Source: Naegleria gruberi
Taxonomy: Eukaryota
Assembly (NCBI GenBank): GCA_000004985.1
Contig: GG738851.1
Reading direction: 5' to 3' (one strand)
Length of the DNA stretch: 64,000 nucleotides
Below are positions 948-44,244 of the stretch, in pieces; position 1 is the first letter of the stretch; each line of letters opens with the position of its first letter. Made by a program: the position numbers and the translations under genes. The notes below the pieces were generated by a model that worked only from the letters and a program-made list of their open reading frames with translations, made no database searches and was not told the DNA's origin.

Positions 948-2504
948 ATGGTAAATTCTGCAAGGGAGCATCAAGAAGGTTTATTTTCCAACGACGTTTG
1001 TTTTGAAATATTGTCATTTCTTGATGGTTGGACTATTATTCGAAACTGCGCTTTAATTTCTAAACAGTGGTTTGAAATTATTAGAAATTATTCGAAACTT
1101 GATCTTGAGGTAATGAGTAAACTTTCCACGGAAAGAATCACCATGTTATCCGAAAGTCAATTCTTGAATAGAATTATTGGCTTCAAAGTTGGAAAGTATG
1201 CAGCTTCCGAATTTGTATTATTCGAAAGCTCAAACCTTGAACAATTATGGGAAACTATTGGTTCAATGTCTCAATTGACTAAACTTGATGTTGGCAAGAC
1301 TGGATTACATACTTTTCCCATTTCAATTTTACCTAATTTGGAAAATTTAACAGAATTAAACTTGACATTTTTGGAAATATTTGACCAAGGAGCAAAAATA
1401 ATAAGTCAACGATTGAAATTCATAACCAAACTCAGCGTCGATTATTGTGGAATTGGAATTGAAGGAGTACAAGCAATTGGAAATATGAAACAATTGACTT
1501 TTTTGAATATTAGTGAAAATGAAATGAGAAATGAAGAGATTGAATTGATTGGAACACTTGATCAACTCAAATATTTGAGTATTCGAAATATTACACGTGA
1601 GAATAACAGTGTTGATGATTATCTAGATTTTAATTCTCTGAAAAATCTGAAATTGTTGACCTACCTCAATATTGGTGAAAATAGAATTTCAGATGAGATT
1701 GGTTTACAATTTTTGAGAGAAATGAAACAATTGACTCATCTCAATGTTGCAAACATGGAAATTGGAAGTATTGGGGCTAAAATAATCAGTGAAATGACAC
1801 ATTTAGTTAAACTAAATATTGGACGAAATGATATTGGAAGAACTGGAATTGATTATATAGGTGAAATGAAACAATTGACCTCATTGAATGTTCAAAACTG
1901 CAATTTAATGGAATGTAAATTTTTATGTGGAATGAAACAATTACAATATTTGAATATTAGCGAAAATACAATTAGAAATGAAGGAGTGGATTTAATTTGT
2001 AAAGAACTATCTCAATTGAAATTTCTGAACATTTCTGAAATATTGTCAAGACCCTATCAATTTAGAAATGTACTCCCCATAAAATTGGAGAATTTACCTC
2101 GCCTTAATCAATTAACTGAGCTCGATCTTAGTAGTGATCGAGTGAATGAAGAAAGTTTGATTTTTCTTCTTGAATTGAAATGTTTAACCTCACTGAATGT
2201 CAGAAGAAATAGCATTACTTGTAATTGTGCTAAAATCATTAGTGGAATGAGCCAATTAACCAAACTGAATATCAGTGAGACACAAGTTGATGAATTGGTG
2301 ATGGAATATATTTGTGGAATGAAAGAGTTGCGAGTGTTGTATATGCAAAAGAATTATTTAGAAAATGATTCAGAGGTTGTTGACTTGATTGAGAAAATGG
2401 AAAGTTTGACTGAACTTGATATTAGTGATTGTTATATCAGTATTGAAAATGAAACCAAATTAAGAGAAATTAAGAAATTAAGGAAGCTTGTATTATTTGC
2501 TTAA
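948..2504 (+). CDS. F-box-like / leucine-rich-repeat protein (518 aa)
   Basis: ATG ORF. The N-terminus carries the motif SNDVCFEILSFLDG..NCALISKQWF, shared with the paralogs at 6982 and 8532. The body is about 20 LRR units with recurring MKQLTxLNI(S/G)xNxI. Confidence 0.85.
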   Translation: MVNSAREHQEGLFSNDVCFEILSFLDGWTIIRNCALISKQWFEIIRNYSKLDLEVMSKLSTERITMLSESQFLNRIIGFKVGKYAASEFVLFESSNLEQLWETIGSMSQLTKLDVGKTGLHTFPISILPNLENLTELNLTFLEIFDQGAKIISQRLKFITKLSVDYCGIGIEGVQAIGNMKQLTFLNISENEMRNEEIELIGTLDQLKYLSIRNITRENNSVDDYLDFNSLKNLKLLTYLNIGENRISDEIGLQFLREMKQLTHLNVANMEIGSIGAKIISEMTHLVKLNIGRNDIGRTGIDYIGEMKQLTSLNVQNCNLMECKFLCGMKQLQYLNISENTIRNEGVDLICKELSQLKFLNISEILSRPYQFRNVLPIKLENLPRLNQLTELDLSSDRVNEESLIFLLELKCLTSLNVRRNSITCNCAKIISGMSQLTKLNISETQVDELVMEYICGMKELRVLYMQKNYLENDSEVVDLIEKMESLTELDISDCYISIENETKLREIKKLRKLVLFA

Positions 2505-2606
2505 CATGAAATAACACTCAATTTCAAAATATTTCTCAACAGCTTAGATTATTAAACTATCTGGATTAGATTTATAATCTTATTCTAAACAACACAAACA
2601 ACACAA

Positions 2607-2677
2607 GGGGCGGTGGTGTAATGGTAACATCGCAGCCTCCAAAGCTGTGGCCGGGGGTTCGATTCCCCCTCGCCCCC
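2607..2677 (+). tRNA. tRNA-Trp: tRNA-Trp (anticodon CCA)
   Basis: The 71-nt sequence folds as a cloverleaf. Acceptor GGGGCGG/TCGCCCC, D-loop GTAATGGTAA, anticodon stem GCAGC/GCTGT with loop CTCCAAA, T-arm GGGGG-TTCGATT-CCCCC. Confidence 0.9.
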
Positions 2678-2924
2678 TGTCATTTTATTTTCCCAAATTA
2701 AGTAAACAAGATTTGATAATACAGGTTAAAGAGTAAAAAATTGGATGCTGTCAATGCGTAACAAGATCTTATTTAAGAAATTTTTAATTACAAGCCAGCT
2801 CGTTGTAAACATTTATTTGACTATTCAAAATTTGCCAAATTAGTATGTATGACATTTTTAAATCAGGTTGACTTTATTGGAAAAATGCTAATGCCTCTAA
2901 TACTGAAAGGTTTGTTAAACAAAA

Positions 2925-4403
2925 ATGCAGAATGACACATCCTCATCTATTCCATCAGTACTTACCAATGTTTTTCGGATTGACCCTCTCATTGTTTCAT
3001 ACATTGAAATTTCTTTGGCAATCGCTGCACTTTTCCTCTCGTTGTCACTTGTCGTGTATATCATCTACTTTTATCTCAAAAAACATCACACAATCACAAA
3101 GAACCACAAGAGAATGATTATTGGAGTGCTCATCATGTGTATTATGGAGTGTTTCGTCTTGATTTTCAGAATTATTTACGATAGTTTGAGTATTTCCTTT
3201 GGATTGAGATTTCAGAAATATGCTTCCACACTTGCATTGAAAAATTCCACAACTCTGGAGGGATTTGATACCTTCTTGTGGTATAACAATACTCTGGGAA
3301 TTACTCCATATGATGTGGGAATAAGTATGGAAGAAATTGTTATTTTCATAATTTCTGTAGCAGCCGAATTATTCATTGTTCTTATGGATATTCAAGTGAT
3401 GGTCATTATTGTTTGGTTTGTTACACTGGTCTTTGTGGAAACGTTTAGATTGTCGAGTGGATTGTTAAATTCAAGAAAAGTGCACTATTTTGTAAATATT
3501 GTCACAATTTTCACAATTATCAACTCGATTGGATTGTTGGTCATTAATTTAGTGACGACAATTCTGACCATTGTACAGAGATTGGGATATATCAGTGCCG
3601 AATCCATTACATATGTCTATGGATTGTGTCTATTACTGTTCCTAATTGAAATTCTCTCCCAAATAACCTTATTAATTGTAAGTAATTCAACAATATGACC
3701 TAGTTCAATATTGTGTTAAATCCGAATCAACAATTCCAATATTGTATTAAATCCGAATCAGATTGCTGCAACAATTGTTCTCCAAACAATTTCCAAAATC
3801 TCCATAGAAAATCAAAACAAGAGAAGAACCATCATTAAAATTCTCATATTACAAAGTGGATTATTTGGTTGTTTCCTATTCGAAGCTTTTGCAGCAGCCT
3901 CTGGAGTACTCGCCCAAGGAGTTGAAGCACATTTTGCTTTAGGCTACTCAACTGGTAATTCTCTTGGAATCTTGATATTTGCCTGCACTGCTCTGACTTT
4001 GTATACTCCTTTCCGAGCCCTGAATACAAAGGCCAATAGTGAAGATCATCAAGTGAATGATTCACTTCATAGTAGGTTAAAGTCATCATCATCAAATAAT
4101 AATTCCATGATGATGATGGAAAAGAAACAATATAGTTCGCTGAGTAATGGAACAACAACTACAACACCTACATCTTTAGTGAGAGTAGGAGAAATACCTC
4201 CTCGTTTGATGATGATAGAATTGGAGGAGGCTGGTATGAGCAATGATTGTTGTATTCAAAGCAGCTCCGGAAATGATGAAAACATGTTGATGGAAAAGGT
4301 TATTGTTGTTGATGAAAAGACAAAACAACAACAACTACCACAATCAACATTAGTAATTACTACCATTCCATGCAACGAACTAGAGAGCATGATCTTGAAA
4401 TAA
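2925..4403 (+). CDS. Multi-pass (approx 8-9 TM) membrane protein with a Ser/Asn-rich C-terminal tail; 2 exons (2925..3677, 3762..4403)
   Basis: ORF 2925..3698 ends at a canonical GTAAGT donor (3678), and AG at 3760-3761 restores the frame into ORF 3972..4403 with no stops in between (..ITLLI|IAATIVLQTIS..). The intron is 84 nt and contains an imperfect 24-nt direct repeat (3706-3729 / 3737-3760). The function is unknown. Confidence 0.65.
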
Positions 4404-4732
4404 TGTAATAATCTTTTTGTATCTCCATTTTGGGAGCATCCGAGAGAACAAATAGAAAAGAAATTACATTTACTCCCAGTTTGCTTTATTTTTTTAATTT
4501 TTTTTTGTTTTTTAAAAAAATTGTAAAAATTATCTTTTCTAATTTCAAATATTTTTATCGGTATTTCGGATTGAACAGTTTCAGATTCGTTCTGAAGAAT
4601 TTATGTGTTAATCTTTTGCTTGCTTCAATTGCAACGGGTATTGTAAGATTAGATCATCACCCAAACATCATGTGGGTGATGTGATGAAATATCATCTTTC
4701 GAATAAAAATTATCGTTCGAAATTAAAAAAAA

Positions 4733-5608
4733 ATGCAAATCCAACAACGACACATTGTTGCTGCTGCAGTTACCATCTTTCTCTTGGTGATTGTCTTTTC
4801 TCTAATGCCAAAAGCCACCGATGACAACTCCAAATACAACAATCATCATCAACAACAACCACAAATCTTGAATGCCAAACAATGTCCTCCATGTCCAACA
4901 ACAGCTGTTCAACAACAACAACAACAGACTTTCAAATCAGGTTCTTGTCCACCTGTTCAAGAATGTAAATGTTACTCTCTGACAGATGCCCCACCAACAG
5001 AACATGGTGATGGACAAGTTACAATGGCCACAACATTTGGTAAAGCACTTAACAAACTTGCTAAACAAGATGATGTGAATACAGTATTGGAAATTGGTAC
5101 TTGGTTTGGTGGTGGTTCTACTCAATGTATTGCCAAGGGATTGAAGGAATCAGGCTCTCATAAAAGATTATACACATTGGAATTATACGAACCTGCTTGG
5201 CAATATGCTAGAAAGACCTATTCACACATGCCAATTTACTTTATTTTGGGAGGAACAGTGCCAACTGATAAATATTTGGCACCAGATGAAATTCCACACA
5301 AGGACGATCACTTTAAATTATATTATCAGAGAGATATTGAATTATCAAAGAAGAATATTCCATGGTTGATGCCATTGTGTTTAGCAACTAGATTTGATGC
5401 TGTTTTGATTGATGGTAATGAATATACTGGTTGGGCTGAATATGAAATTGTTAATGATCATTGTAAACCAAAATATTTAATGTTGCATGATGTTGGTACT
5501 TTAAAGACAAATAAGATTGAAAAGGTTATTAAACAAGGTGGAACTGTTTGGGAATTGATAGATGAAGGTCAAGATGCTGCCAGATGGCAAATTTATAAGA
5601 GAAAATAA
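4733..5608 (+). CDS. Type II membrane protein with a class I SAM-methyltransferase-like motif (VLEIGTWFGGGSTQCIAKGL); poly-Q tracts; 291 aa
   Basis: ATG ORF with an N-terminal signal-anchor (VAAAVTIFLLVIVFSL) and a Gln-rich, Cys-containing linker. The motif hhEhGtxxGxST resembles motif I of TylF-type O-methyltransferases. The assignment rests on the motif only. Confidence 0.45.
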   Translation: MQIQQRHIVAAAVTIFLLVIVFSLMPKATDDNSKYNNHHQQQPQILNAKQCPPCPTTAVQQQQQQTFKSGSCPPVQECKCYSLTDAPPTEHGDGQVTMATTFGKALNKLAKQDDVNTVLEIGTWFGGGSTQCIAKGLKESGSHKRLYTLELYEPAWQYARKTYSHMPIYFILGGTVPTDKYLAPDEIPHKDDHFKLYYQRDIELSKKNIPWLMPLCLATRFDAVLIDGNEYTGWAEYEIVNDHCKPKYLMLHDVGTLKTNKIEKVIKQGGTVWELIDEGQDAARWQIYKRK

Positions 5609-5806
5609 TTGATAAAATTATTATGAAATAAATCCAAGAATAATATTAATTATTGACAATGTCTTCTATTAACAATTTTAGGTAATTTTAATTGTGATGT
5701 AGCTGCTTGGATTTCATGGCTAAAATCTGTGAAATAGAAATGTTTCCTTTGTTTAGAGGCAGTTATTTATTTTTTATAGGGACGTCATTTTCAATATGAA
5801 CAAGAA

Positions 5807-5879
5807 GCCCGTCTAGCTCAGTCGGTAGAGCGCAAGGCTCTTAACCTTGTGGTCGTGGGTTCGACCCCCACGGTGGGCG
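5807..5879 (+). tRNA. tRNA-Lys: tRNA-Lys (anticodon CTT)
   Basis: GCCCGTCTAGCTCAGTCGGTAGAGCGCAAGGCTCTTAACCTTGTGGTCGTGGGTTCGACCCCCACGGTGGGCG, 73 nt. The anticodon loop is CTCTTAA and the B-box is GGTTCGACCCC. Confidence 0.9.
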
Positions 5880-5999
5880 TTTCCTTTTGGTTTAATTTTT
5901 TTTTGCTCTATTTTGCAGAGTGATTTTGAATTAATTGAGACAAGGTCCTCAAATCCTGAAAATAAGGTATCTACATAGCTAGAAAAAGCAAGGCTTCTG

Positions 6000-6480
6000 C
6001 TCCGAATACATCAACAAGCTTTTTTCCACTTTAAATGCAACACTCCAAAACGATACAAGTGATGAAGCCCTTGGTCTTCGTACACAACATGATCCAGAAG
6101 CTAGTACATCATTAACACCAGAAGAAGATGAGGATGAACTTGAGGGGGATGAGGAAAACTCTCCAATATCACAACCAACACCTTGGACAAGACCTAGGCA
6201 TCCAAACTATGGAATGAAAACAGTTTCATCTAATAATCCAAATGAAAAACGAAAAAGAAAGCAAAGGTGGCTTCAAGAAATTCGAAAATATCAAAAATCA
6301 ACTTGGAATCTCATTAATCTAACAAGTTACTGCTGAATTATCTGAGAAAGTTCCATACATTAGACAGCATGTTGGTGAAGGTGCAATTCGATGGAGAAAG
6401 GATGCTCTTGCTGCTCTCCAGCAGCAGAAGATTATTTACATGAAGTTTTATCACTCGTGTTGGTTGTTCTTCTTTATTGA
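6000..6480 (+). pseudogene. Histone H3 / CenH3-like remnant (acidic N-tail, alphaN, alpha1, part of alpha2), frameshifted and truncated
   Basis: Frame 1 reads ..EEDEDELEGDEENSP..KRKRKQRWLQEIRKYQKSTWNLINLT (compare H3 [21 protein letters not shown] and CENP-A GWLKEIRKLQKST). After a +1 shift the next frame reads AELSEKVPYIRQHVGEGAIRWRKDALAALQQ (compare DFNWQAQALLALQEA). The next frame reads AAEDYLHEV and then loses the histone fold. There is no intact ORF. Confidence 0.4.
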
Positions 6481-6981
6481 CCACCCGAGTATCTTGTTCA
6501 TTAATAATTTCAATAACTTCTTGTGGGTGAACATTTGGAGAAGTGTTTTCTCTATTGTTGGATGGGGTATTTCTAAGACAAGTAGTTTCGTCTAGATCCA
6601 ATAACTCCATTTCGTATCCTCGGCCTGACTGCAATATTTTCTTGGTTAATAGTAGATCTATTTGTAGGTTGTTCAAGATTTTCATTTCTTCTATTCTCAG
6701 TGCTAATTTTGTTCAAGATTCCCATTTACAACATTATAATTCCATACAATCGGATTTGGAATCTTTAATAACCAGTTGACCTCATTAAACAATATCCAAT
6801 ATATGATTCCAATCAATTCAATTGCACTTCTTTTAAAATAAAACATGTATTATTATTTTAGAACATGACGGAACTTCAATTATTGTACAACATGTTTAAT
6901 GTAAAGTGGCATGGTATTGTTGCTTGTGATATTAATCAGAAAAAACTGCCAATATTTCAGCTATCATCAATTATCATCATT

Positions 6982-8326
6982 ATGATGGAGGTAAAACAAG
7001 AAGGTTGGTATTTTCGAATCGATATTTTCAAAATAATAATAATAATTAATGAATTGAATTGTTAATTAATAGAGAAGGTTATATTTTCGGATGATGTTTG
7101 TTTTGAAATTATTTCCATGATTGATGATTCGTGGTTTATTTTGAATAATTGTTCTTTAATTTCAAAACAATGGTTTAATGTGATCAAGGAACGTTCAAAA
7201 CTTGTTATTCAATTTAAAAAACAATTAACAGAAAAAAGAATTGAATTGTTAATGAAAAGTCAATTCATGAATAGTATTGTAAATGTTAAGTTTTATTATG
7301 GGTTGCTTAACTCTTCAGATAAACTTAAATTCATAAGTGGAATGAAATCATTAACATCACTTAATATTGGTCATAATGAAATTGGTGTAGAAGGAGCCAA
7401 ATTCATAAGTGAAATGAAACATGTAACATCACTTTATATACATTACAATGAAATTGGTGTAGAAGGATCCAAATTTATAAGTGAAATGAAACAATTAACA
7501 TCACTTAATATTGCTGACAATGAAATTGGCGTAGAAGGATCCAAATTCATAAGTGAAATGAAACAATTAACATCACTTAATATTGATTACAATGAAATTG
7601 GTGTAGAAGGAGCCAAATTCATAAGTGAAATGAAACAATTAACATCACTTAATATTGCTCGACAATGAAATTGGCGTAGAAGGATCCAAATTCATAAGTG
7701 AAATGAAACAATTAACATCACTTAATATTGGTGGCAATGAAATTGGTGTAGAAGGAGCCAAATACATGAGTGAAATGAAACATTTAACATCACTTGATAT
7801 ACATCGCAATGAAATTGGTGTAGAAGGATCCAAATTCATAAGTGAAATGAAACATTTAACATCACTTAATATATATTACAATGAAATTGGTGTAGAAGGA
7901 TCCAAATACATAAGTGAAATGAAACATTTAACATCACTTAATATTGGTGATAATGAAATTGGTGTAGAAGGATCCAAATACATAAGTGAAATGAAACAAT
8001 TAACATCACTTAATATTGCTGACAATGAAATTGGCGTAGAAGGATCCAAATTCATAAGTGAAATGAAACATTTAACATCACTTTATATATATTACAATGA
8101 AATTGGTGTAGAAGGAGCCAAATTCATAAGTGAAATGAAACATTTAACATCACTTAATATTTCTGGCAATCAAATTGGTGATGAGGGATCCAAATTCATA
8201 AGTGAAATGAAATCATTAACATCACTTAATATTGGTGATAATGAAATTGGTGTAGAAGGAGCCAAATTCATAAGTGGAATGAAACAATTAACATCACTTA
8301 ATATTGATGACAATGAATTGGTGTAG
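6982..8326 (+). CDS. F-box-like / LRR protein carrying about 13 near-identical 72-bp (24-aa) tandem repeats; contains a 1-nt frameshift (possible pseudogene or assembly error)
   Basis: ORFs 7117..7668 and 7655..8326 are the same repeat array split by one extra C (gctCgacaatg near 7660 versus gctgacaatg in the other units). The N-terminal motif DDVCFEIISMIDDSWFILNNCSLISKQWF lies upstream of the first ATG with no in-frame ATG before it. A mini-exon ATGATGGAG (6982..6990) plus an 81-nt GTAAAA..AATAG intron (6991..7071) would supply the start; that is inference. The repeat unit is NEIGVEGSKFISEMKQLTSLNIxx. Confidence 0.6.
7375..8320 (+). repeat. Tandem array of about 13 copies of a 72-bp coding repeat (over 90 percent identical)
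   Basis: aatgaaattggtgtagaaggatccaaattcataagtgaaatgaaacaattaacatcacttaatatt recurs with a period of 72 nt (7381, 7453, 7525 ...). Confidence 0.9.
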
Positions 8327-8392
8327 AATAAAACGTGAAACTTTATTAATGTCTCTTATATCAATAACAGCCTTGATGACATTTGGTAGGTC

Positions 8393-8432
8393 TCATATCT
8401 TAAGGTCGTGAGTTCGACCCCCATGGTGGGCG
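8393..8432 (+). pseudogene. Orphan tRNA 3'-half fragment, derived from tRNA-Lys(CTT)
   Basis: tcttaaggtcgtgagttcgacccccatggtgggcg matches the 3' half of the tRNA-Lys at 5807 (T-arm plus acceptor 3' strand) with 2 substitutions. No matching 5' half or acceptor strand lies upstream. Confidence 0.5.
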
Positions 8433-8531
8433 ATTCAATTTTTGTTGATCACAATTATCGTAGTGGTTGCTGATGATGAACTTTGTCCTATTATTAGGTT
8501 CACTAAGTCTTTCTAATTATTTAAAAAAAAA

Positions 8532-9884
8532 ATGATGATCAATTACGAATCAGTCTCCAATTCCATCAATTCCTCCCATTCCACAATATTCTCTGATGAT
8601 ATTTGTTATGAAATTCTATCCTATTTCCATGAGGAAAATGATGGAAAATTTATTCTACTAAATTGTTCGTTAATTTCCAAACAGTGGATGATGAATGTGA
8701 AGAAATTCGGAAAGATTTCAATTAATATTCGAAATAGAGTTTCGGATTCATTGATAGAACCAATCAAGAGAAATCAATTTTTGGAATGTTTTGTGAAATT
8801 TGGAATTTATTCGCAAGATTTCAAGTTTCATGAAATAATTAAAATGATGAAGAATTTAAAAAGTCTTTCTATTGGAAATTGTTCTATTGGAGAGGAGGAT
8901 TTGAAATTTATCGGAGAAATGAATCATTTAACTGAACTTGAATTGTGTGAATGTTTGACTGGAGATAAAGATATTAGACCAATTAGTAGAATGTCTCAAT
9001 TGACTAAATTAAATATTAGTAAGAATGCAAAATACCATTTAAGCGATATCTTTGACATGAAGCAATTAAAAATACTAGAAATTGGAGAAAATTTCATAGG
9101 AGATGAACAAGCTGAACTGCTTTCCAATCATTTGAAACAATTGACCATTTTACGAATTAATAACAACTTAATTCATTCTCAAGGTGTTAAACATTTGAGT
9201 AAATTGGATCAATTGACTGAATTAGATTTAAGTGGAAATGCTTTTAATGATACAATTGGCTCTGAAATTGCAAAAATGGAACAATTGAAAACTCTTCACG
9301 TTAACAAACTTGCAAGACATCGAATGGGATCACGGTTGGGTTCACAATTTGGAAACTTATTTCAATTGACCAGTCTTAGTATAAGTAATAATTATATTGG
9401 AGATGAAGGAGCCAACGAAATTAGTAATTTAACACAATTGACTGAATTATATGTACATGGAGCTGAAATTGGATATAGAGGAGCCAGATCATTAAGTGTT
9501 TTACACCAGTTGACCAAACTAGATATCAGTACAAATCATATTGGAGATGAGGGAGTTAGATTATTCAAACAATTATCAAAATTAACAGAACTTGTTGTGT
9601 TTAATAATAGAATTGGAGATGTTGGAGCACAACTTATTAGTGAAATTCCTCAATTGACCTCTCTTGTTGTTAGTAGCAATCAAATTGGAAACGAAGGGGC
9701 AAAATCAATTAGTCAAATGTCAAAATTGAAATATCTTTCGATTAATGGAAATCAAATTGGTGATCAAGGAGCTAAATTATTAAGTGAAATGAATCAATTA
9801 AGAAGAATTGAAGTTTATGGAAATAATATTAGTAATGAGATATTTCAATTATTTGGAATTAAAATTCAAAATAAATTGAAATAA
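8532..9884 (+). CDS. F-box-like / leucine-rich-repeat protein (450 aa)
   Basis: ATG ORF. The N-terminus reads SDDICYEILSYF..LLNCSLISKQW, and LRR units (LTxLxISxNxIGDEGA) fill the rest. Confidence 0.85.
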   Translation: MMINYESVSNSINSSHSTIFSDDICYEILSYFHEENDGKFILLNCSLISKQWMMNVKKFGKISINIRNRVSDSLIEPIKRNQFLECFVKFGIYSQDFKFHEIIKMMKNLKSLSIGNCSIGEEDLKFIGEMNHLTELELCECLTGDKDIRPISRMSQLTKLNISKNAKYHLSDIFDMKQLKILEIGENFIGDEQAELLSNHLKQLTILRINNNLIHSQGVKHLSKLDQLTELDLSGNAFNDTIGSEIAKMEQLKTLHVNKLARHRMGSRLGSQFGNLFQLTSLSISNNYIGDEGANEISNLTQLTELYVHGAEIGYRGARSLSVLHQLTKLDISTNHIGDEGVRLFKQLSKLTELVVFNNRIGDVGAQLISEIPQLTSLVVSSNQIGNEGAKSISQMSKLKYLSINGNQIGDQGAKLLSEMNQLRRIEVYGNNISNEIFQLFGIKIQNKLK

Positions 9885-9954
9885 AGGAAGTGATTACAAT
9901 AAACAAAAGTGGAATATTATATCCAAATGATTAAGGATGTTAAGGTAAAATGAA

Positions 9955-10027
9955 GCTGGCGTAGCTCAGTCGGTAGAGCGTTGGTCTAATAAGCCATTGG
10001 TCGCCGGTTCGATCCCGTCCGTCAGCA
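9955..10027 (+). tRNA. tRNA-Ile: tRNA-Ile (anticodon AAT)
   Basis: GCTGGCGTAGCTCAGTCGGTAGAGCG..CTAATAA..GGTTCGATCC..CGTCAGCA. The acceptor pairs at 7/7, and the anticodon loop CTAATAA is typical of eukaryotic tRNA-Ile(AAU). The T stem has one mismatch. Confidence 0.75.
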
Positions 10028-28151: not shown

Positions 28152-28226
28152 TGCTACCCGCGCGGATCGAACGCACATCTTCTTACTCCCGATAAGCAAG
28201 ACGCCCTACCATTAGACCAGAGCAGC
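28152..28226 (-). tRNA. tRNA-like gene of uncertain identity (possible tRNA-Ile TAT with a 4-nt intron, or a pseudogene)
   Basis: The minus-strand sequence is GCTGCTCTGGTCTAATGGTAGGGCG TCTTG CTTATCGGGAG TAAGA AGAT GTGCGTTCGATCCGCGC GGGTAGCA. The acceptor, D-arm and T-arm are good (B-box GTTCGATCC). The anticodon stem TCTTG/TAAGA encloses 11 nt rather than 7, so either a 4-nt intron or an expanded loop is present. Confidence 0.5.
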
Positions 28227-42876: not shown

Positions 42877-44244
42877 ATGAAACGAACCTCTTCCGAAGAC
42901 AACTCTCTCGATACTTTTTCATCATCAAAAAAGCAAAAATCCAATCAATTATTGGAAATGAAACCTCTAAATATTCTCGTTTGTCGGTATGATCCATTTG
43001 TTTTGGGTCATGTATTCAAGTTTTGTTCGCCAATGGATTTGCCATCACTTGCTGTGGTGTGTAAGGATTGGCATGATTTGTACTTTTCCCGTGAGAAGAT
43101 CGTACTCATTCTGAAGGAGTGGGTCGATACTCAATGGAATAACAAGATTTGTTCAGGAAAATTGACATGGACTTGGTCTGTGGAATATAACCCAGAGAAT
43201 GAATATCATTCATTGGCATATTGGTTAAGATTGTTGAATGTATTGAAGGAAGTGAATATAATGATCACAGATGAGCAAGGGAAAAAAGATGATAATGATG
43301 AAGAAGAAGAAAACGAAGAGGAACATGATGACGAAGAGGAAGAACAAGACGTAGAGGAAGATGAAGAGGAAGATGACCAAGAAGATGAAGGAGAGGATGA
43401 AGAAAATGATGAACATGATGATACTGAGGATTTAAAGAAGATATCACATTCTGTAGAGTTTATTGAGATGGGCAATACGAAACTGTGTAAAATCACAACA
43501 TCCTCAAATAGATTTCTCCTAGTTTCGAATAATGGGAATATTATCCGTTTCAAAAGGAAGAAGAAGGAATTGTTATGCTCTTTTTATGGAGGTTTATCAT
43601 ATCCAAGTTTTGAAAATTGTAATTATAGAAGTGATTATTGGGTTTCCCTTGTTCCAGGTAAAAAGGGAATTTTAGTTTTGCAATTAAAACAAATGGTGAA
43701 ATATTTGGGATTTGATGATGAATATTTAGTAGCATGCAATCTCATTGACATTATTGGATTGAAAAAAGCGAAGGTTTCTAATTCAAAGTATACAGATTAC
43801 CCTTGGGATCAAGGAGAAGCTGACGGAATAATAGAATTTGTGCCTTGGGAAATTGTAACTGCGTGCACAACAAGTGATTATGACATATCGCATATTTGTG
43901 AATGTTTGGATGATCGATTTTTCAATAGTTTCGACTTATTCTGCAAGTTAATAGAAGTCAGTACTACCATGTACACTGAATCCATAATCAAGAATATTTC
44001 TCTCAAAGTTGACAGTGAATTTTTCAAGAATAGAGGGTTGTTGAAATATTGTCGTCAGGAAAGAAAATTATTCAAGTTATTGGATGAGTCATTGAGACAT
44101 GATAAGGAATTCCTTAAAGAGGCTCTAAGAGTCAACCCATCCATTCTCAAGTATCTTTTTAAAAAGGAATATACGGATATCATTGAAATTGATAGAGAGC
44201 TGATTTTAGACTGCTTGAATCGTTTAAGTGTAGCTCAGCAATAA
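42877..44244 (+). CDS. Hypothetical protein with an N-terminal F-box-like segment and a long acidic (D/E) tract, 455 aa
   Basis: ATG ORF. The F-box-like segment is LNILVCRYDPFVLGHVFKFCSPMDLPSLAVVCKDWHDL. The acidic run EEEENEEEHDDEEEEQDVEEDEEEDDQEDEGEDEENDEHDD is encoded by a GAA/GAT/GAG-rich DNA tract at 43290-43440. Confidence 0.55.
   Translation: MKRTSSEDNSLDTFSSSKKQKSNQLLEMKPLNILVCRYDPFVLGHVFKFCSPMDLPSLAVVCKDWHDLYFSREKIVLILKEWVDTQWNNKICSGKLTWTWSVEYNPENEYHSLAYWLRLLNVLKEVNIMITDEQGKKDDNDEEEENEEEHDDEEEEQDVEEDEEEDDQEDEGEDEENDEHDDTEDLKKISHSVEFIEMGNTKLCKITTSSNRFLLVSNNGNIIRFKRKKKELLCSFYGGLSYPSFENCNYRSDYWVSLVPGKKGILVLQLKQMVKYLGFDDEYLVACNLIDIIGLKKAKVSNSKYTDYPWDQGEADGIIEFVPWEIVTACTTSDYDISHICECLDDRFFNSFDLFCKLIEVSTTMYTESIIKNISLKVDSEFFKNRGLLKYCRQERKLFKLLDESLRHDKEFLKEALRVNPSILKYLFKKEYTDIIEIDRELILDCLNRLSVAQQ

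Follow-up and report, generated by a model that had tools for sequence, protein, structure and literature searches.

The 72-bp tandem repeat studied here lies in a window of 64,000 nucleotides (the whole stretch of DNA that was analysed) from Naegleria gruberi contig GG738851.1. It belongs to an unannotated, ordinary member of an N. gruberi F-box-like/LRR family, and its array has recently expanded. In proteins of this family a short N-terminal domain with a weak resemblance to an F-box precedes 24-residue GALA/GL-type (CC-LRR) repeats. The locus is placed in an LRR family by its match to a Pfam LRR model, by its N. gruberi paralogues and by its fit to the GALA/GL-LRR pattern.

Gene identity and architecture

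The window ORFs 948-2504 and 4733-5608 are identical to the N. gruberi NEG-M proteins EFC48259 and EFC48261 from a 693,645-bp scaffold. For the array locus there is no deposited protein model among the NEG-M proteins, and neither its 183-aa ORF nor the exon-joined 200-aa version of it has an exact-sequence match in the protein collection. All that can be read from this lack of a gene model is that the assembly has a frameshift at the locus. Literature searches found no published description of an N. gruberi LRR family with 24-residue repeats. The main parts of the gene are:

7075-7302, plus strand: N-terminal domain made up of an F-box-like motif (IFSDDVCFEIISMIDDSWFILNNCSLISKQWFNVI) and then a linker, located by tblastn and the family alignment
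7303-7374, plus strand: first LRR unit, degenerate (LLNSSDKLKFISGMKSLTSLNIGH; 67% identity with the consensus of the units), modelled by AF2 as a strand and a helix
7375-8311, plus strand: 13 full 72-bp units encoding NEIGVEG(S/A)KFISEMK(Q/H)LTSLNIxx, spanning 937 nt including the extra C
8312-8326, plus strand: incomplete last unit (AATGAA-TTGGTGTAG), with one nucleotide lost from its AAA run and a TAG stop

With the extra C at 7660 removed, the protein is 419 aa long, in perfect LRR register, and scores 202 bits against Pfam LRR_6 (PF13516; gathering threshold 23.4, E = 3.7e-62). On the plus strand one frame is open through all units and the other two have stops in each unit; the motif LTSLNIxxN is present in every one. 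The AF2 model, which covers the first units, shows a solenoid of alternating strands and helices, in which every 24 residues contribute a short strand and a 9-residue helix in regular order, and it has a pLDDT of 96-98 over the repeats. When this model was used in a fold search the top matches were all LRR proteins, and the closest solved structures were GALA-type LRR domains.

The closest sequence matches are N. gruberi paralogues at 66-82% identity, and the N-terminus is common to all of them. The closest known systems are the paralogues P0001, P0003, P0004 and P0002, each deposited as 'predicted protein', and a relative from the ENA metagenomes, P0006. They share with our gene the N-terminal module (…IFSDDVCFEIISM(I/L)DDSWFILNNCSLISKQ(W/F)FNVIKERSKLVIQFKK…), which is 75-91% identical over 76 residues, and the 24-residue unit …GxKFISEMKQLTSLxIxxNxIGxE…; their arrays also end abruptly, without a C-terminal cap. 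However, the paralogues have about 4-7 units, whereas the array studied here has 14, two to three times more than the closest of them, and their lag-24 self-identity is 0.21-0.37 compared with 0.64. In the DNA of the metagenome relative the array comprises 4.1 copies with 77% identity; here the figures are 13.9 copies and 89%. Further, the paralogues are found on other scaffolds and have deposited gene models, while the present locus has none and is frameshifted. In tblastn the N-terminal match is unbroken from 7066 on, and the first 90 residues are 86% identical to P0001 on its other scaffold. The first-pass annotation had spoken of a young paralog; this is right for the array and wrong for the gene.

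The F-box assignment was examined with the Pfam profiles PF00646 and PF12937. Five of eight family N-termini match the F-box-like model at E <= 1 (best E = 2.7e-5), and one matches PF00646 at 6.2e-4. The N-terminus of our gene reaches 12.6 bits (E = 0.12), below the gathering cutoff of 24.3 for F-box-like. An alignment of the family N-termini shows invariant F, S, D, C, E, I, N, C and LISKQ positions. A profile of these N-termini found no F-box chain at E <= 10 in the PDB, only chance-level matches to unrelated proteins. In the AF2 model the N-terminus forms helices at residues 6-14 and 19-40 with a pLDDT of only 64-86, and the first 20 residues are of low confidence. The F-box proteins FBXL2, FBXL17 and FBXL5 align over 166-168 of 195 residues; LRR proteins without an F-box cover similar lengths.

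The 5' end is ambiguous. A TAA at 7063-7065 closes the paralogue-homologous ORF upstream, and no trace of the extension that the paralogues carry at their N-terminus (MSKRNRQD…) was seen ahead of our gene. Two gene models are conceivable here:

6982-6990, plus strand: putative first exon (ATG ATG GAG); a GT..AG join would give MME followed by KVIFSDD
6991-7074, plus strand: putative 84-nt intron (GTAAAA...ATAGAG), a candidate GT..AG pair
6982-7003 and 7004-7072, plus strand: exon 1 and intron of the alternative model, which would give MMEVKQE followed by EKVIFSDD

A degenerate direct repeat, 6999-7027 versus 7073-7099, has 24 of 27 matches, a score reached by none of 500 shuffles. It spans the 3' boundary of the putative intron (first copy intronic, second copy where exon 2 begins), and may alternatively mark a small 5' duplication.

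The GALA/GL-LRRs are a 24-residue branch of the CC-LRR subfamily, with the RipG/GALA effectors of Ralstonia, LegL1 of Legionella and F-box GL-LRR proteins of protists and plants as members (Kajava et al. 2008, PMC2244805). Their pattern has N (or C/T) at position 3, I/V at 5, G at 6, G/A at 9, A/L at 10 and apolar residues at 13, 19, 22 and 24, while position 16 is not conserved in GALA and is Leu in GL (PMC2244805). Our repeat has 24 codons (72 nt) in all 13 units, and in the register xxNEIGVEG(S/A)KFISEMKQLTSLNI the residues N3, I5, G6 and G9 are invariant and I13, L19, L22 and I24 are present. Position 10 fits in part (A in 5 of the 13 units, S in 8), and at position 16 all units have Met, which shares the apolar character of the GL type without being Leu, so that either sub-type may apply. 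The effectors of Ralstonia and Legionella are secreted bacterial proteins, whereas ours is a gene of the eukaryote itself; it also differs from the GALA/GL proteins in that its F-box is only weakly detectable and its units are near-identical at the DNA level. The eukaryotic F-box/LRR substrate receptors of SCF ubiquitin ligases (Skp2, FBXL2, FBXL17, FBXL5, COI1/TIR1) are also different: the canonical ones have 26-residue CC-LRRs and F-boxes above the Pfam thresholds, in contrast to 24-residue repeats and a sub-threshold F-box here.

Variation among the repeats and growth of the array

Tandem Repeats Finder reports a single array at 7327-8328 with a period of 72, 13.9 copies, 89% matches and a score of 1550. 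A 47-nt core of the unit has 12 matches at up to three mismatches, compared with none expected from shuffles. The first-pass annotation had described about 13 near-identical coding repeats, which agrees with the 13 full units found here, to which a degenerate first and a truncated last unit must be added. Its figure of over 90 percent identity between units is correct as an average (mean pairwise identity 90.2%) but not for every pair, as the range is 76-97%; to the consensus, the 13 units are 87.5-97% identical.

The differences between units are not evenly distributed. Half (50%) of the nucleotide diversity is found in 12 of the 72 columns, the last 12 of the unit, which encode exposed beta-strand residues (permutation p = 1.4e-4). 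At codons 21, 23 and 24 pN/pS is 1.9, compared with 0.5 elsewhere, values that are descriptive only, the repeat units being non-independent. Codon 23 occurs as six codon types, all differing at positions 1-2 and never at position 3. Units 3 and 5 are 3 nt apart, and all three differences fall in the two variable codons (x-x). The resulting diresidues include AD, DY, GG, HR, YY, GD, SG, DD and HY, one pair per unit, on the predicted binding face. Judged from the sequence, this pattern suggests that the array was under protein-level selection until recently. The earlier term satellite-like understates the structure of the array, the differences between units being mostly nonsynonymous and located at exposed beta-strand residues.

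The expansion of the array is recent, as seen from a unit number above that of the paralogues, from the overall lag-24 self-identity of 0.64, the highest among the 95 family proteins compared, and from exact copies within the array, 109 nt at lag 2 and 89 nt at lag 7. This fits the earlier proposal of recent expansion or concerted evolution. The mean number of mismatches is flat over lags 1-12, and copied blocks are seen individually at lags 2, 5 and 7. A higher-order periodicity was considered and rejected, as the flat lag profile means that there is no fixed super-repeat.

We propose that the array grew recently to 14 units as blocks of one or two units were duplicated or spread by gene conversion, with unequal recombination or replication slippage as the likely means of block copying. 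Scaffold residues would thereby have been homogenised, while diversity at the exposed beta-strand residues (LTSL-N-I-x-x) would have been kept, probably by selection acting at the protein level.

From the last, partial unit (AATGAA-TTGG) an A is missing near 8317, so that the protein ends in ...NELV and a stop. If the A is restored it ends in NEIGVE and a TAA. As there is a stop at the end of the array with or without the missing A, the end of the protein is the end of the array, and the deletion is harmless. This second indel was overlooked in the first-pass annotation. On the 3' side of the array a tRNA-like remnant is found, recognised only by alignment to an intact tRNA-Lys gene; Rfam made no call on it in the stretch after the array.

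The extra C and the break in the frame

The following features describe the break in the frame:

7660, plus strand: extra C (GCT-C-GAC) in unit 4, inside the two hypervariable codons; +1 frameshift
7666-7668, plus strand: premature TGA stop of the upstream ORF (…NIARQ, stop)
7117-7668, plus strand: upstream ORF, 183 aa, ending in ...NIARQ
7655-8326, plus strand: downstream ORF, 223 aa, starting at TTG, with no ATG near its start and without the N-terminal domain

The two overlapping ORFs and the extra C that separates them are as first described. In contrast, the statement that all other units read GCTGACAATG at this place does not hold: only two others do, at the junctions 7513/7519 and 8018/8024, neither with an extra C, and the remaining units have different codons there. 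When the C is removed, 7621-7730 is identical over 109 nt to 7477-7585, two units upstream, and 89 nt of the same stretch are matched again seven units downstream. Since these 109 nt match the upstream copy exactly, the inserted base must be either of very recent origin or an error of the consensus. The first-pass annotation posed much the same choice, a real lesion or an assembly error, and posed it correctly. Signs of relaxed constraint, such as more stops and indels or substitutions scattered at random, are not seen; the downstream frame is open over 223 codons and the variation between units is still concentrated at the exposed LRR positions. The absence of any substitution in the 109 nt around the C, together with this open frame, would make the lesion a young one. 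The only other oddities of the locus are the terminal 1-nt deletion and the ambiguous 5' end. A cryptic intron that skips the extra C and keeps the LRR register was also considered and rejected, as no GT..AG pair of length 72k+1 spans the site.

With somewhat more confidence than doubt, we take the extra C to be a real, very recent mutation rather than a consensus error, a judgement made on priors. The main competing explanation is a sequencing or assembly artefact, that is, an intact gene of about 419 aa and 14 LRRs for which the stacking of reads from near-identical units gave a faulty consensus, at the C at 7660 and perhaps also at the missing A near 8317. We rather doubt this, but it is a serious candidate. 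Apart from the C the ORF is pristine, without another clear disruption, and removal of this one base restores the 419 aa; the 109 nt around it are otherwise identical to the sister copy; and the variation between units still looks like that of a selected, functional gene, with no decay downstream. So clean a locus is as compatible with a consensus error as with a young mutation. Further, GCTCGAC equals a column-wise merge of GCT-GAC, from the units with AD, and CATCG-C, from the unit at 7736. Both endings occur in the array, so mis-stacked reads could give such a consensus. The second indel lies in an AAA run, which is a typical site for a base-calling slip.

Several observations nevertheless make us lean towards a real mutation. 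GCTCGAC is not part of a homopolymer. Between two units about 7 of the 72 bases differ, and no exact repeat is longer than 109 nt, so reads of several hundred bases, such as the long Sanger reads behind the N. gruberi assembly, should be placed unambiguously. There are hints that the locus is untidy elsewhere too, with an in-frame TAA at 7063, the degenerate 27-nt duplication in the irregular 5' end and the 1-nt deletion in the last unit, and abruptly ending arrays are common among the family members. The C may be present on only one allele of NEG-M, a laboratory strain long kept in axenic culture. There is one public N. gruberi genome, and two scans of metagenome DNA, for the junction with or without the C and for a conserved 27-nt core, gave 0 matches.

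If the mutation is real, a single C would have been inserted at 7660, in the x-x codons of the most recently copied block, and the shifted frame would cut the product from 14 LRRs to the N-terminal domain, the degenerate first unit and five complete LRRs, about 200 aa. Such a protein is close in size and architecture to the annotated paralogues P0001 (236 aa) and P0004 (230 aa), and the earlier description of the lesion as inactivating was too strong. The sequence would then represent a fresh truncation allele or an incipient pseudogene, not an old dead gene.

A programmed +1 ribosomal frameshift at GCU-CGA-C, with the C real, is very improbable. Here a short five-LRR product and a full 14-LRR product (...NIAD NEIG...) would be made at a regulated ratio: with peptidyl-tRNA-Ala in the P site and the rare CGA in the A site, GAC would be read next, giving the trans-frame peptide …LTSLNIADNEIGVEGSK…. 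CGA is indeed a minor Arg codon (3.5 per 1000 codons, compared with 24.2 for AGA), the shifted reading gives exactly the NIAD/NEIG junction of the two sister copies, and the zero-frame stop (UGA) follows within two codons. The layout resembles the Ty3 shift site of yeast, GCG-AGU-U, which is a lead only. However, GCU-CGA-C is not a described site, and no known slippery heptamer and no stimulatory element was found. The sister units show an ancestral GCTGAC, so the C is a recent insertion rather than a conserved signal. To our knowledge no nuclear programmed +1 frameshifting has been described in Naegleria.

Finally, it is just as improbable that the break is meaningless because the repeat, which is long, regular, tandem and without a deposited gene model, is a non-coding satellite or part of two independent small genes: the satellite reading is effectively refuted by the coding signatures (the single open frame, the LRR_6 score and the confident fold prediction), its closest paralogues, which share its N-terminus, are annotated as proteins, the units differ mainly at the exposed codons 21, 23 and 24 as in a protein under selection, and the second of the two genes would have neither an ATG start nor an N-terminal domain.

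Possible function and meaning for the family

By analogy with F-box/LRR proteins, the gene probably encodes a recognition adaptor, which would hold a target protein on the concave beta-sheet of its LRRs and be docked through its N-terminal domain to a partner such as Skp1. Such a role as SCF adaptor depends on the F-box assignment, which is below threshold for this protein. Hypervariable residues on the concave face are general to LRR proteins. A near-invariant repeat scaffold with a few hypervariable positions is also known from the diresidues of TAL effectors, from lamprey VLRs and from the LRRs of plant NLRs. Our repeats are alike, by analogy only, in being almost identical with their diversity on two adjacent residues per unit. 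The likeness to these proteins is one of sequence pattern, and nothing found here points to a code of one repeat per ligand unit, somatic assembly or nucleic-acid binding. That the array is a modular recognition device, in which the two hypervariable residues of each unit contact one unit of a periodic ligand as TAL-effector diresidues do, is very improbable.

Nothing at this locus alters known LRR or F-box biology. The locus is a real gene that is absent from the N. gruberi NEG-M annotation because of a one-base break of the frame in the assembly. A frameshift in a repeat protein without a cap need not produce a null allele, as it may do no more than shorten the array to the length found in the paralogues. 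If the copy number of the array or the extra C varies among N. gruberi isolates, either would make a handy strain marker. For the family, the locus is a small and clean example of how an LRR array evolves, with block duplication or conversion homogenising the scaffold while the binding face stays diverse.

The array and the protein it encodes

Tandem Repeats Finder reports one strong array at 7327-8328 (period 72, 13.9 copies, 89% matches, score 1550), and no other array in the 64-kb window comes near this score. Its parts are as follows.

Layout of the 72-bp array in the gene at 6982-8326
7303-7374: degenerate first unit, 67% identity to the consensus
7375-8311: 13 full units, N-E-I-G register
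8312-8326: truncated last unit, N-E-I-G register

The mean pairwise identity of the 13 full units is 90.2% (range 76-97%), and a 47-nt core of the unit has 12 matches with at most three mismatches, compared with none in 100 shuffles. The near-identical 72-bp coding array described in the first-pass annotation is clearly present, and that finding as a whole is real and mainly well described. The extra C that it noted is found at 7660, but a second indel was overlooked: one A is absent from an AAA run in the last partial unit, which then reads NELV*. With the A restored it reads NEIGVE directly followed by TAA, so either way the gene ends where the array ends.

When the extra C is removed the product is 419 aa long and matches Pfam LRR_6 with 202 bits (E = 3.7e-62). 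Numbered as in Kajava et al. 2008 (PMC2244805), the 24-residue unit has the sequence xxNEIGVEG(S/A)KFISEMKQLTSLNI. It shows N3, I5, G6 and G9, either A or S in position 10, and an apolar residue in each of positions 13, 19, 22 and 24. Judged by this residue pattern, the repeat belongs to the GALA/GL-LRR branch of the CC-LRR subfamily, which occurs in protists and is frequently fused to an F-box (PMC2244805). For the part upstream of the frame break (7075-7659), which is intact, AlphaFold predicts a regular strand/helix solenoid with a mean pLDDT of 91, and 96-98 in the repeats. The nearest solved structures are the LRR domains of ribonuclease inhibitor, NLR and RanGAP.

Strong conservation across the family marks the N-terminal 45 residues, IFSDDVCFEIISMIDDSWFILNNCSLISKQWFNVI, which weakly suggest an F-box. 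Pfam F-box-like matches five of eight family N-termini (best E = 2.7e-5), while that of the target scores 12.6 bits, below the cutoff of 24.3. Further, a family N-terminal profile recovered no F-box chain from the PDB, and the first 20 residues have low confidence in the AlphaFold model. We therefore class the protein among the GALA/GL-type LRR proteins and call its N-terminus F-box-like, without taking it for a proven F-box protein. By analogy, it might act as an SCF adaptor.

Variation and homogenisation of the units

The differences between units are concentrated: columns 61-72 carry half of the nucleotide diversity (permutation p = 1.4e-4). At codons 21, 23 and 24 pN/pS is about 1.9, and elsewhere about 0.5; as the units cannot be treated as independent of each other, the ratios serve as description rather than as a formal test. 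Six codon types are found at codon 23, every one NNT, and the three base differences between units 3 and 5 all fall in the two hypervariable codons of the unit (xx in NEIGVEG...LTSLNIxx). In contrast, positions 2, 5, 10, 12, 13 and 19 vary freely among paralogue units and are frozen within the target. The x positions of LxxLxLxxN are solvent-facing on the concave sheet of an LRR. The picture is therefore that of a homogenised scaffold with a diverse predicted binding face.

The closest paralogues have roughly 4-7 repeats that are far less alike, compared with 14 units in the target, while a Naegleria-like metagenome contig has 4.1 copies at 77% identity. Repeat self-identity in the target (0.64) is the highest overall among the 95 family proteins compared, but some others hold locally homogenised stretches, so the uniformity is not unique. 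The array shows no fixed higher-order period. Without the extra C, 7621-7730 is an exact 109-nt match to 7477-7585, and a part of it, 89 nt long, recurs seven units downstream; all three copied blocks span the junction …NIAD|NEIGVEGSK…. Ordinary processes explain the finding: a coding LRR array, in a gene family specific to the lineage, was recently expanded and homogenised, and its frame shows a one-base break that may or may not be real.

In general, abrupt array ends seem to be common in this family. In the metagenome relative P0006 (2086-2877, + strand, of locus L001; ENA ERZ929261 k127_410811, a Naegleria-like contig of 4116 bp and 33% G+C), the N-terminus is 83% identical to that of the target. 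Its LRR array ends abruptly after about four units, a short way ahead of an amino-acid-transporter-like gene, and unrelated sequence follows it.

The frame break at 7660

The extra C lies in GCT-C-GAC and puts the units from 7663 on out of register by one base. As first described, it splits the gene into two overlapping ORFs, 7117-7668 (ending …NIARQ*) and 7655-8326. GCTGAC is not found in all other units, as had been claimed, but in just two. The extra C is located in the xx codons of unit 4, inside the most recently copied block. As the surrounding 109 nt otherwise do not differ from the sister copy and the downstream frame is open for all 223 codons, the lesion must be very recent if it is real at all. 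Splicing cannot bypass it, since no GT..AG pair removes 72k+1 nt with the register kept.

We lean modestly towards the insertion being real. It does not lie in a homopolymer. With about 7 base differences between units and no exact repeat longer than 109 nt, long Sanger reads, on which we take the N. gruberi assembly to be based, should be placed correctly. The untidy 5' end and the 1-nt deletion in the last unit also count in this direction. Upstream, the F-box-like ORF is closed by a TAA at 7063, and an ATG becomes available only through a putative intron of 69-84 nt, whose 3' boundary is straddled by a degenerate 27-nt direct repeat.

Degenerate direct repeat (24/27 matches, 2 gaps; score reached by 0 of 500 shuffles)
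6999-7027, +: copy in the putative intron
7073-7099, +: copy at the start of exon 2

The repeat may mark a small 5' duplication by which the ATG came to lie apart from the F-box-like coding sequence, i.e. a second lesion, or it may be a coincidence. Since the genus is mainly heterozygous diploid (PMC9928731) and NEG-M is a laboratory strain that has been long in axenic culture, an allele-specific lesion at 7660 is plausible.

A sequencing or assembly artefact is a possibility that we take seriously but do not favour. Apart from the extra C, its sole clear defect, the gene looks as if it were under selection, and GCTCGAC can be written as GCT-GAC merged with CATCG-C, the end of unit 7736; wrongly stacked reads could yield such a merger. 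The lack of a homopolymer, the divergent units and the untidy locus speak against it. N. gruberi has a single public genome, and two metagenome scans gave no second copy of the target.

Programmed +1 frameshifting at GCU-CGA-C is very improbable: CGA is a minor codon (3.5 per 1000 vs 24.2 for AGA) and the shift would restore the NIAD|NEIG junction, but sister copies give the ancestral sequence as plain GCTGAC and the site fits no recognised frameshift signal. A TAL-effector-like 'diresidue code' would be an analogy without supporting evidence, and the exotic readings together receive a few percent.

Genomic surroundings and consequences

The ORFs 948-2504 and 4733-5608 are identical to the NEG-M proteins EFC48259/XP_002681003 and EFC48261/XP_002681005 of a 693,645-bp scaffold. 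The base composition is 33% G+C, and one tRNA-Ile gene has anticodon AAT; both agree with a eukaryotic origin. No deposited protein matches the target locus: exact look-up of its plausible products in the protein collection found none, and the best database match is a paralogue with 82% identity on a different scaffold. The reference thus lacks an annotation of this gene, which would be the expected outcome of a gene caller meeting the broken frame.

LRR genes of the first 10 kb (948-10027) whose N-termini are F-box-like, and tRNA genes downstream of them
948-2504, +: LRR gene
2607, +: tRNA-Trp
6982-8326, +: LRR gene (target)
near 8404, +: tRNA-Lys remnant
8532-9884, +: LRR gene
9955, +: tRNA-Ile

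Each LRR gene has a same-strand tRNA gene or remnant 70-102 nt downstream. The N-termini of the other two are just 39-47% identical to that of the target, so the set does not stem from recent tandem duplication of one gene. The neighbour at 8532-9884 is an intact ORF of 450 aa, absent as such from the protein collection, and P0005 is the sole N. gruberi model from this scaffold among the database hits; either no model is deposited for the neighbour, or the deposited one departs from the simple ORF.

The remnant is a degenerate tRNA-Lys(CTT)-like 3' half at 8404-8433 (+), within 8355-8445 and 77 nt past the array end (GGTCGTGAGTTCGACCCCCATGGTGGGCG vs GGTCGTGGGTTCGACCCCCACGGTGGGCG of the intact tRNA-Lys gene at 5807-5879). 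Its 5' half is not recognisable, and neither ARAGORN nor Rfam calls it. Further, ARAGORN calls a 75-nt tRNA-Pro(GGG) at 28152-28226 (-), anticodon at position 37, which is probably a false positive; a gathering-threshold Rfam scan backs the other six tRNAs and not this one. An imperfect GAA/GAT-rich coding microsatellite at 43289-43413 (+; periods 12, 18 and 36, 72-79% matches) sits within the ORF 42877-44244 and would encode an acidic Glu/Asp run.

The lesion had been called potentially inactivating. The frame is indeed broken, but loss of the protein is not established. Joined to the putative first exon, the upstream ORF would encode 200 aa: the N-terminal domain, followed by the degenerate first unit and then five complete LRRs. 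Two annotated paralogues, P0001 (236 aa) and P0004 (230 aa), have roughly this architecture, and family members lack a C-terminal cap. Therefore a real frameshift would shorten the LRR array and need not abolish the protein. The target is an unannotated family member of a known protein type. It yields an annotation correction for the N. gruberi reference, and illustrates binding-face diversity on a homogenised LRR scaffold.
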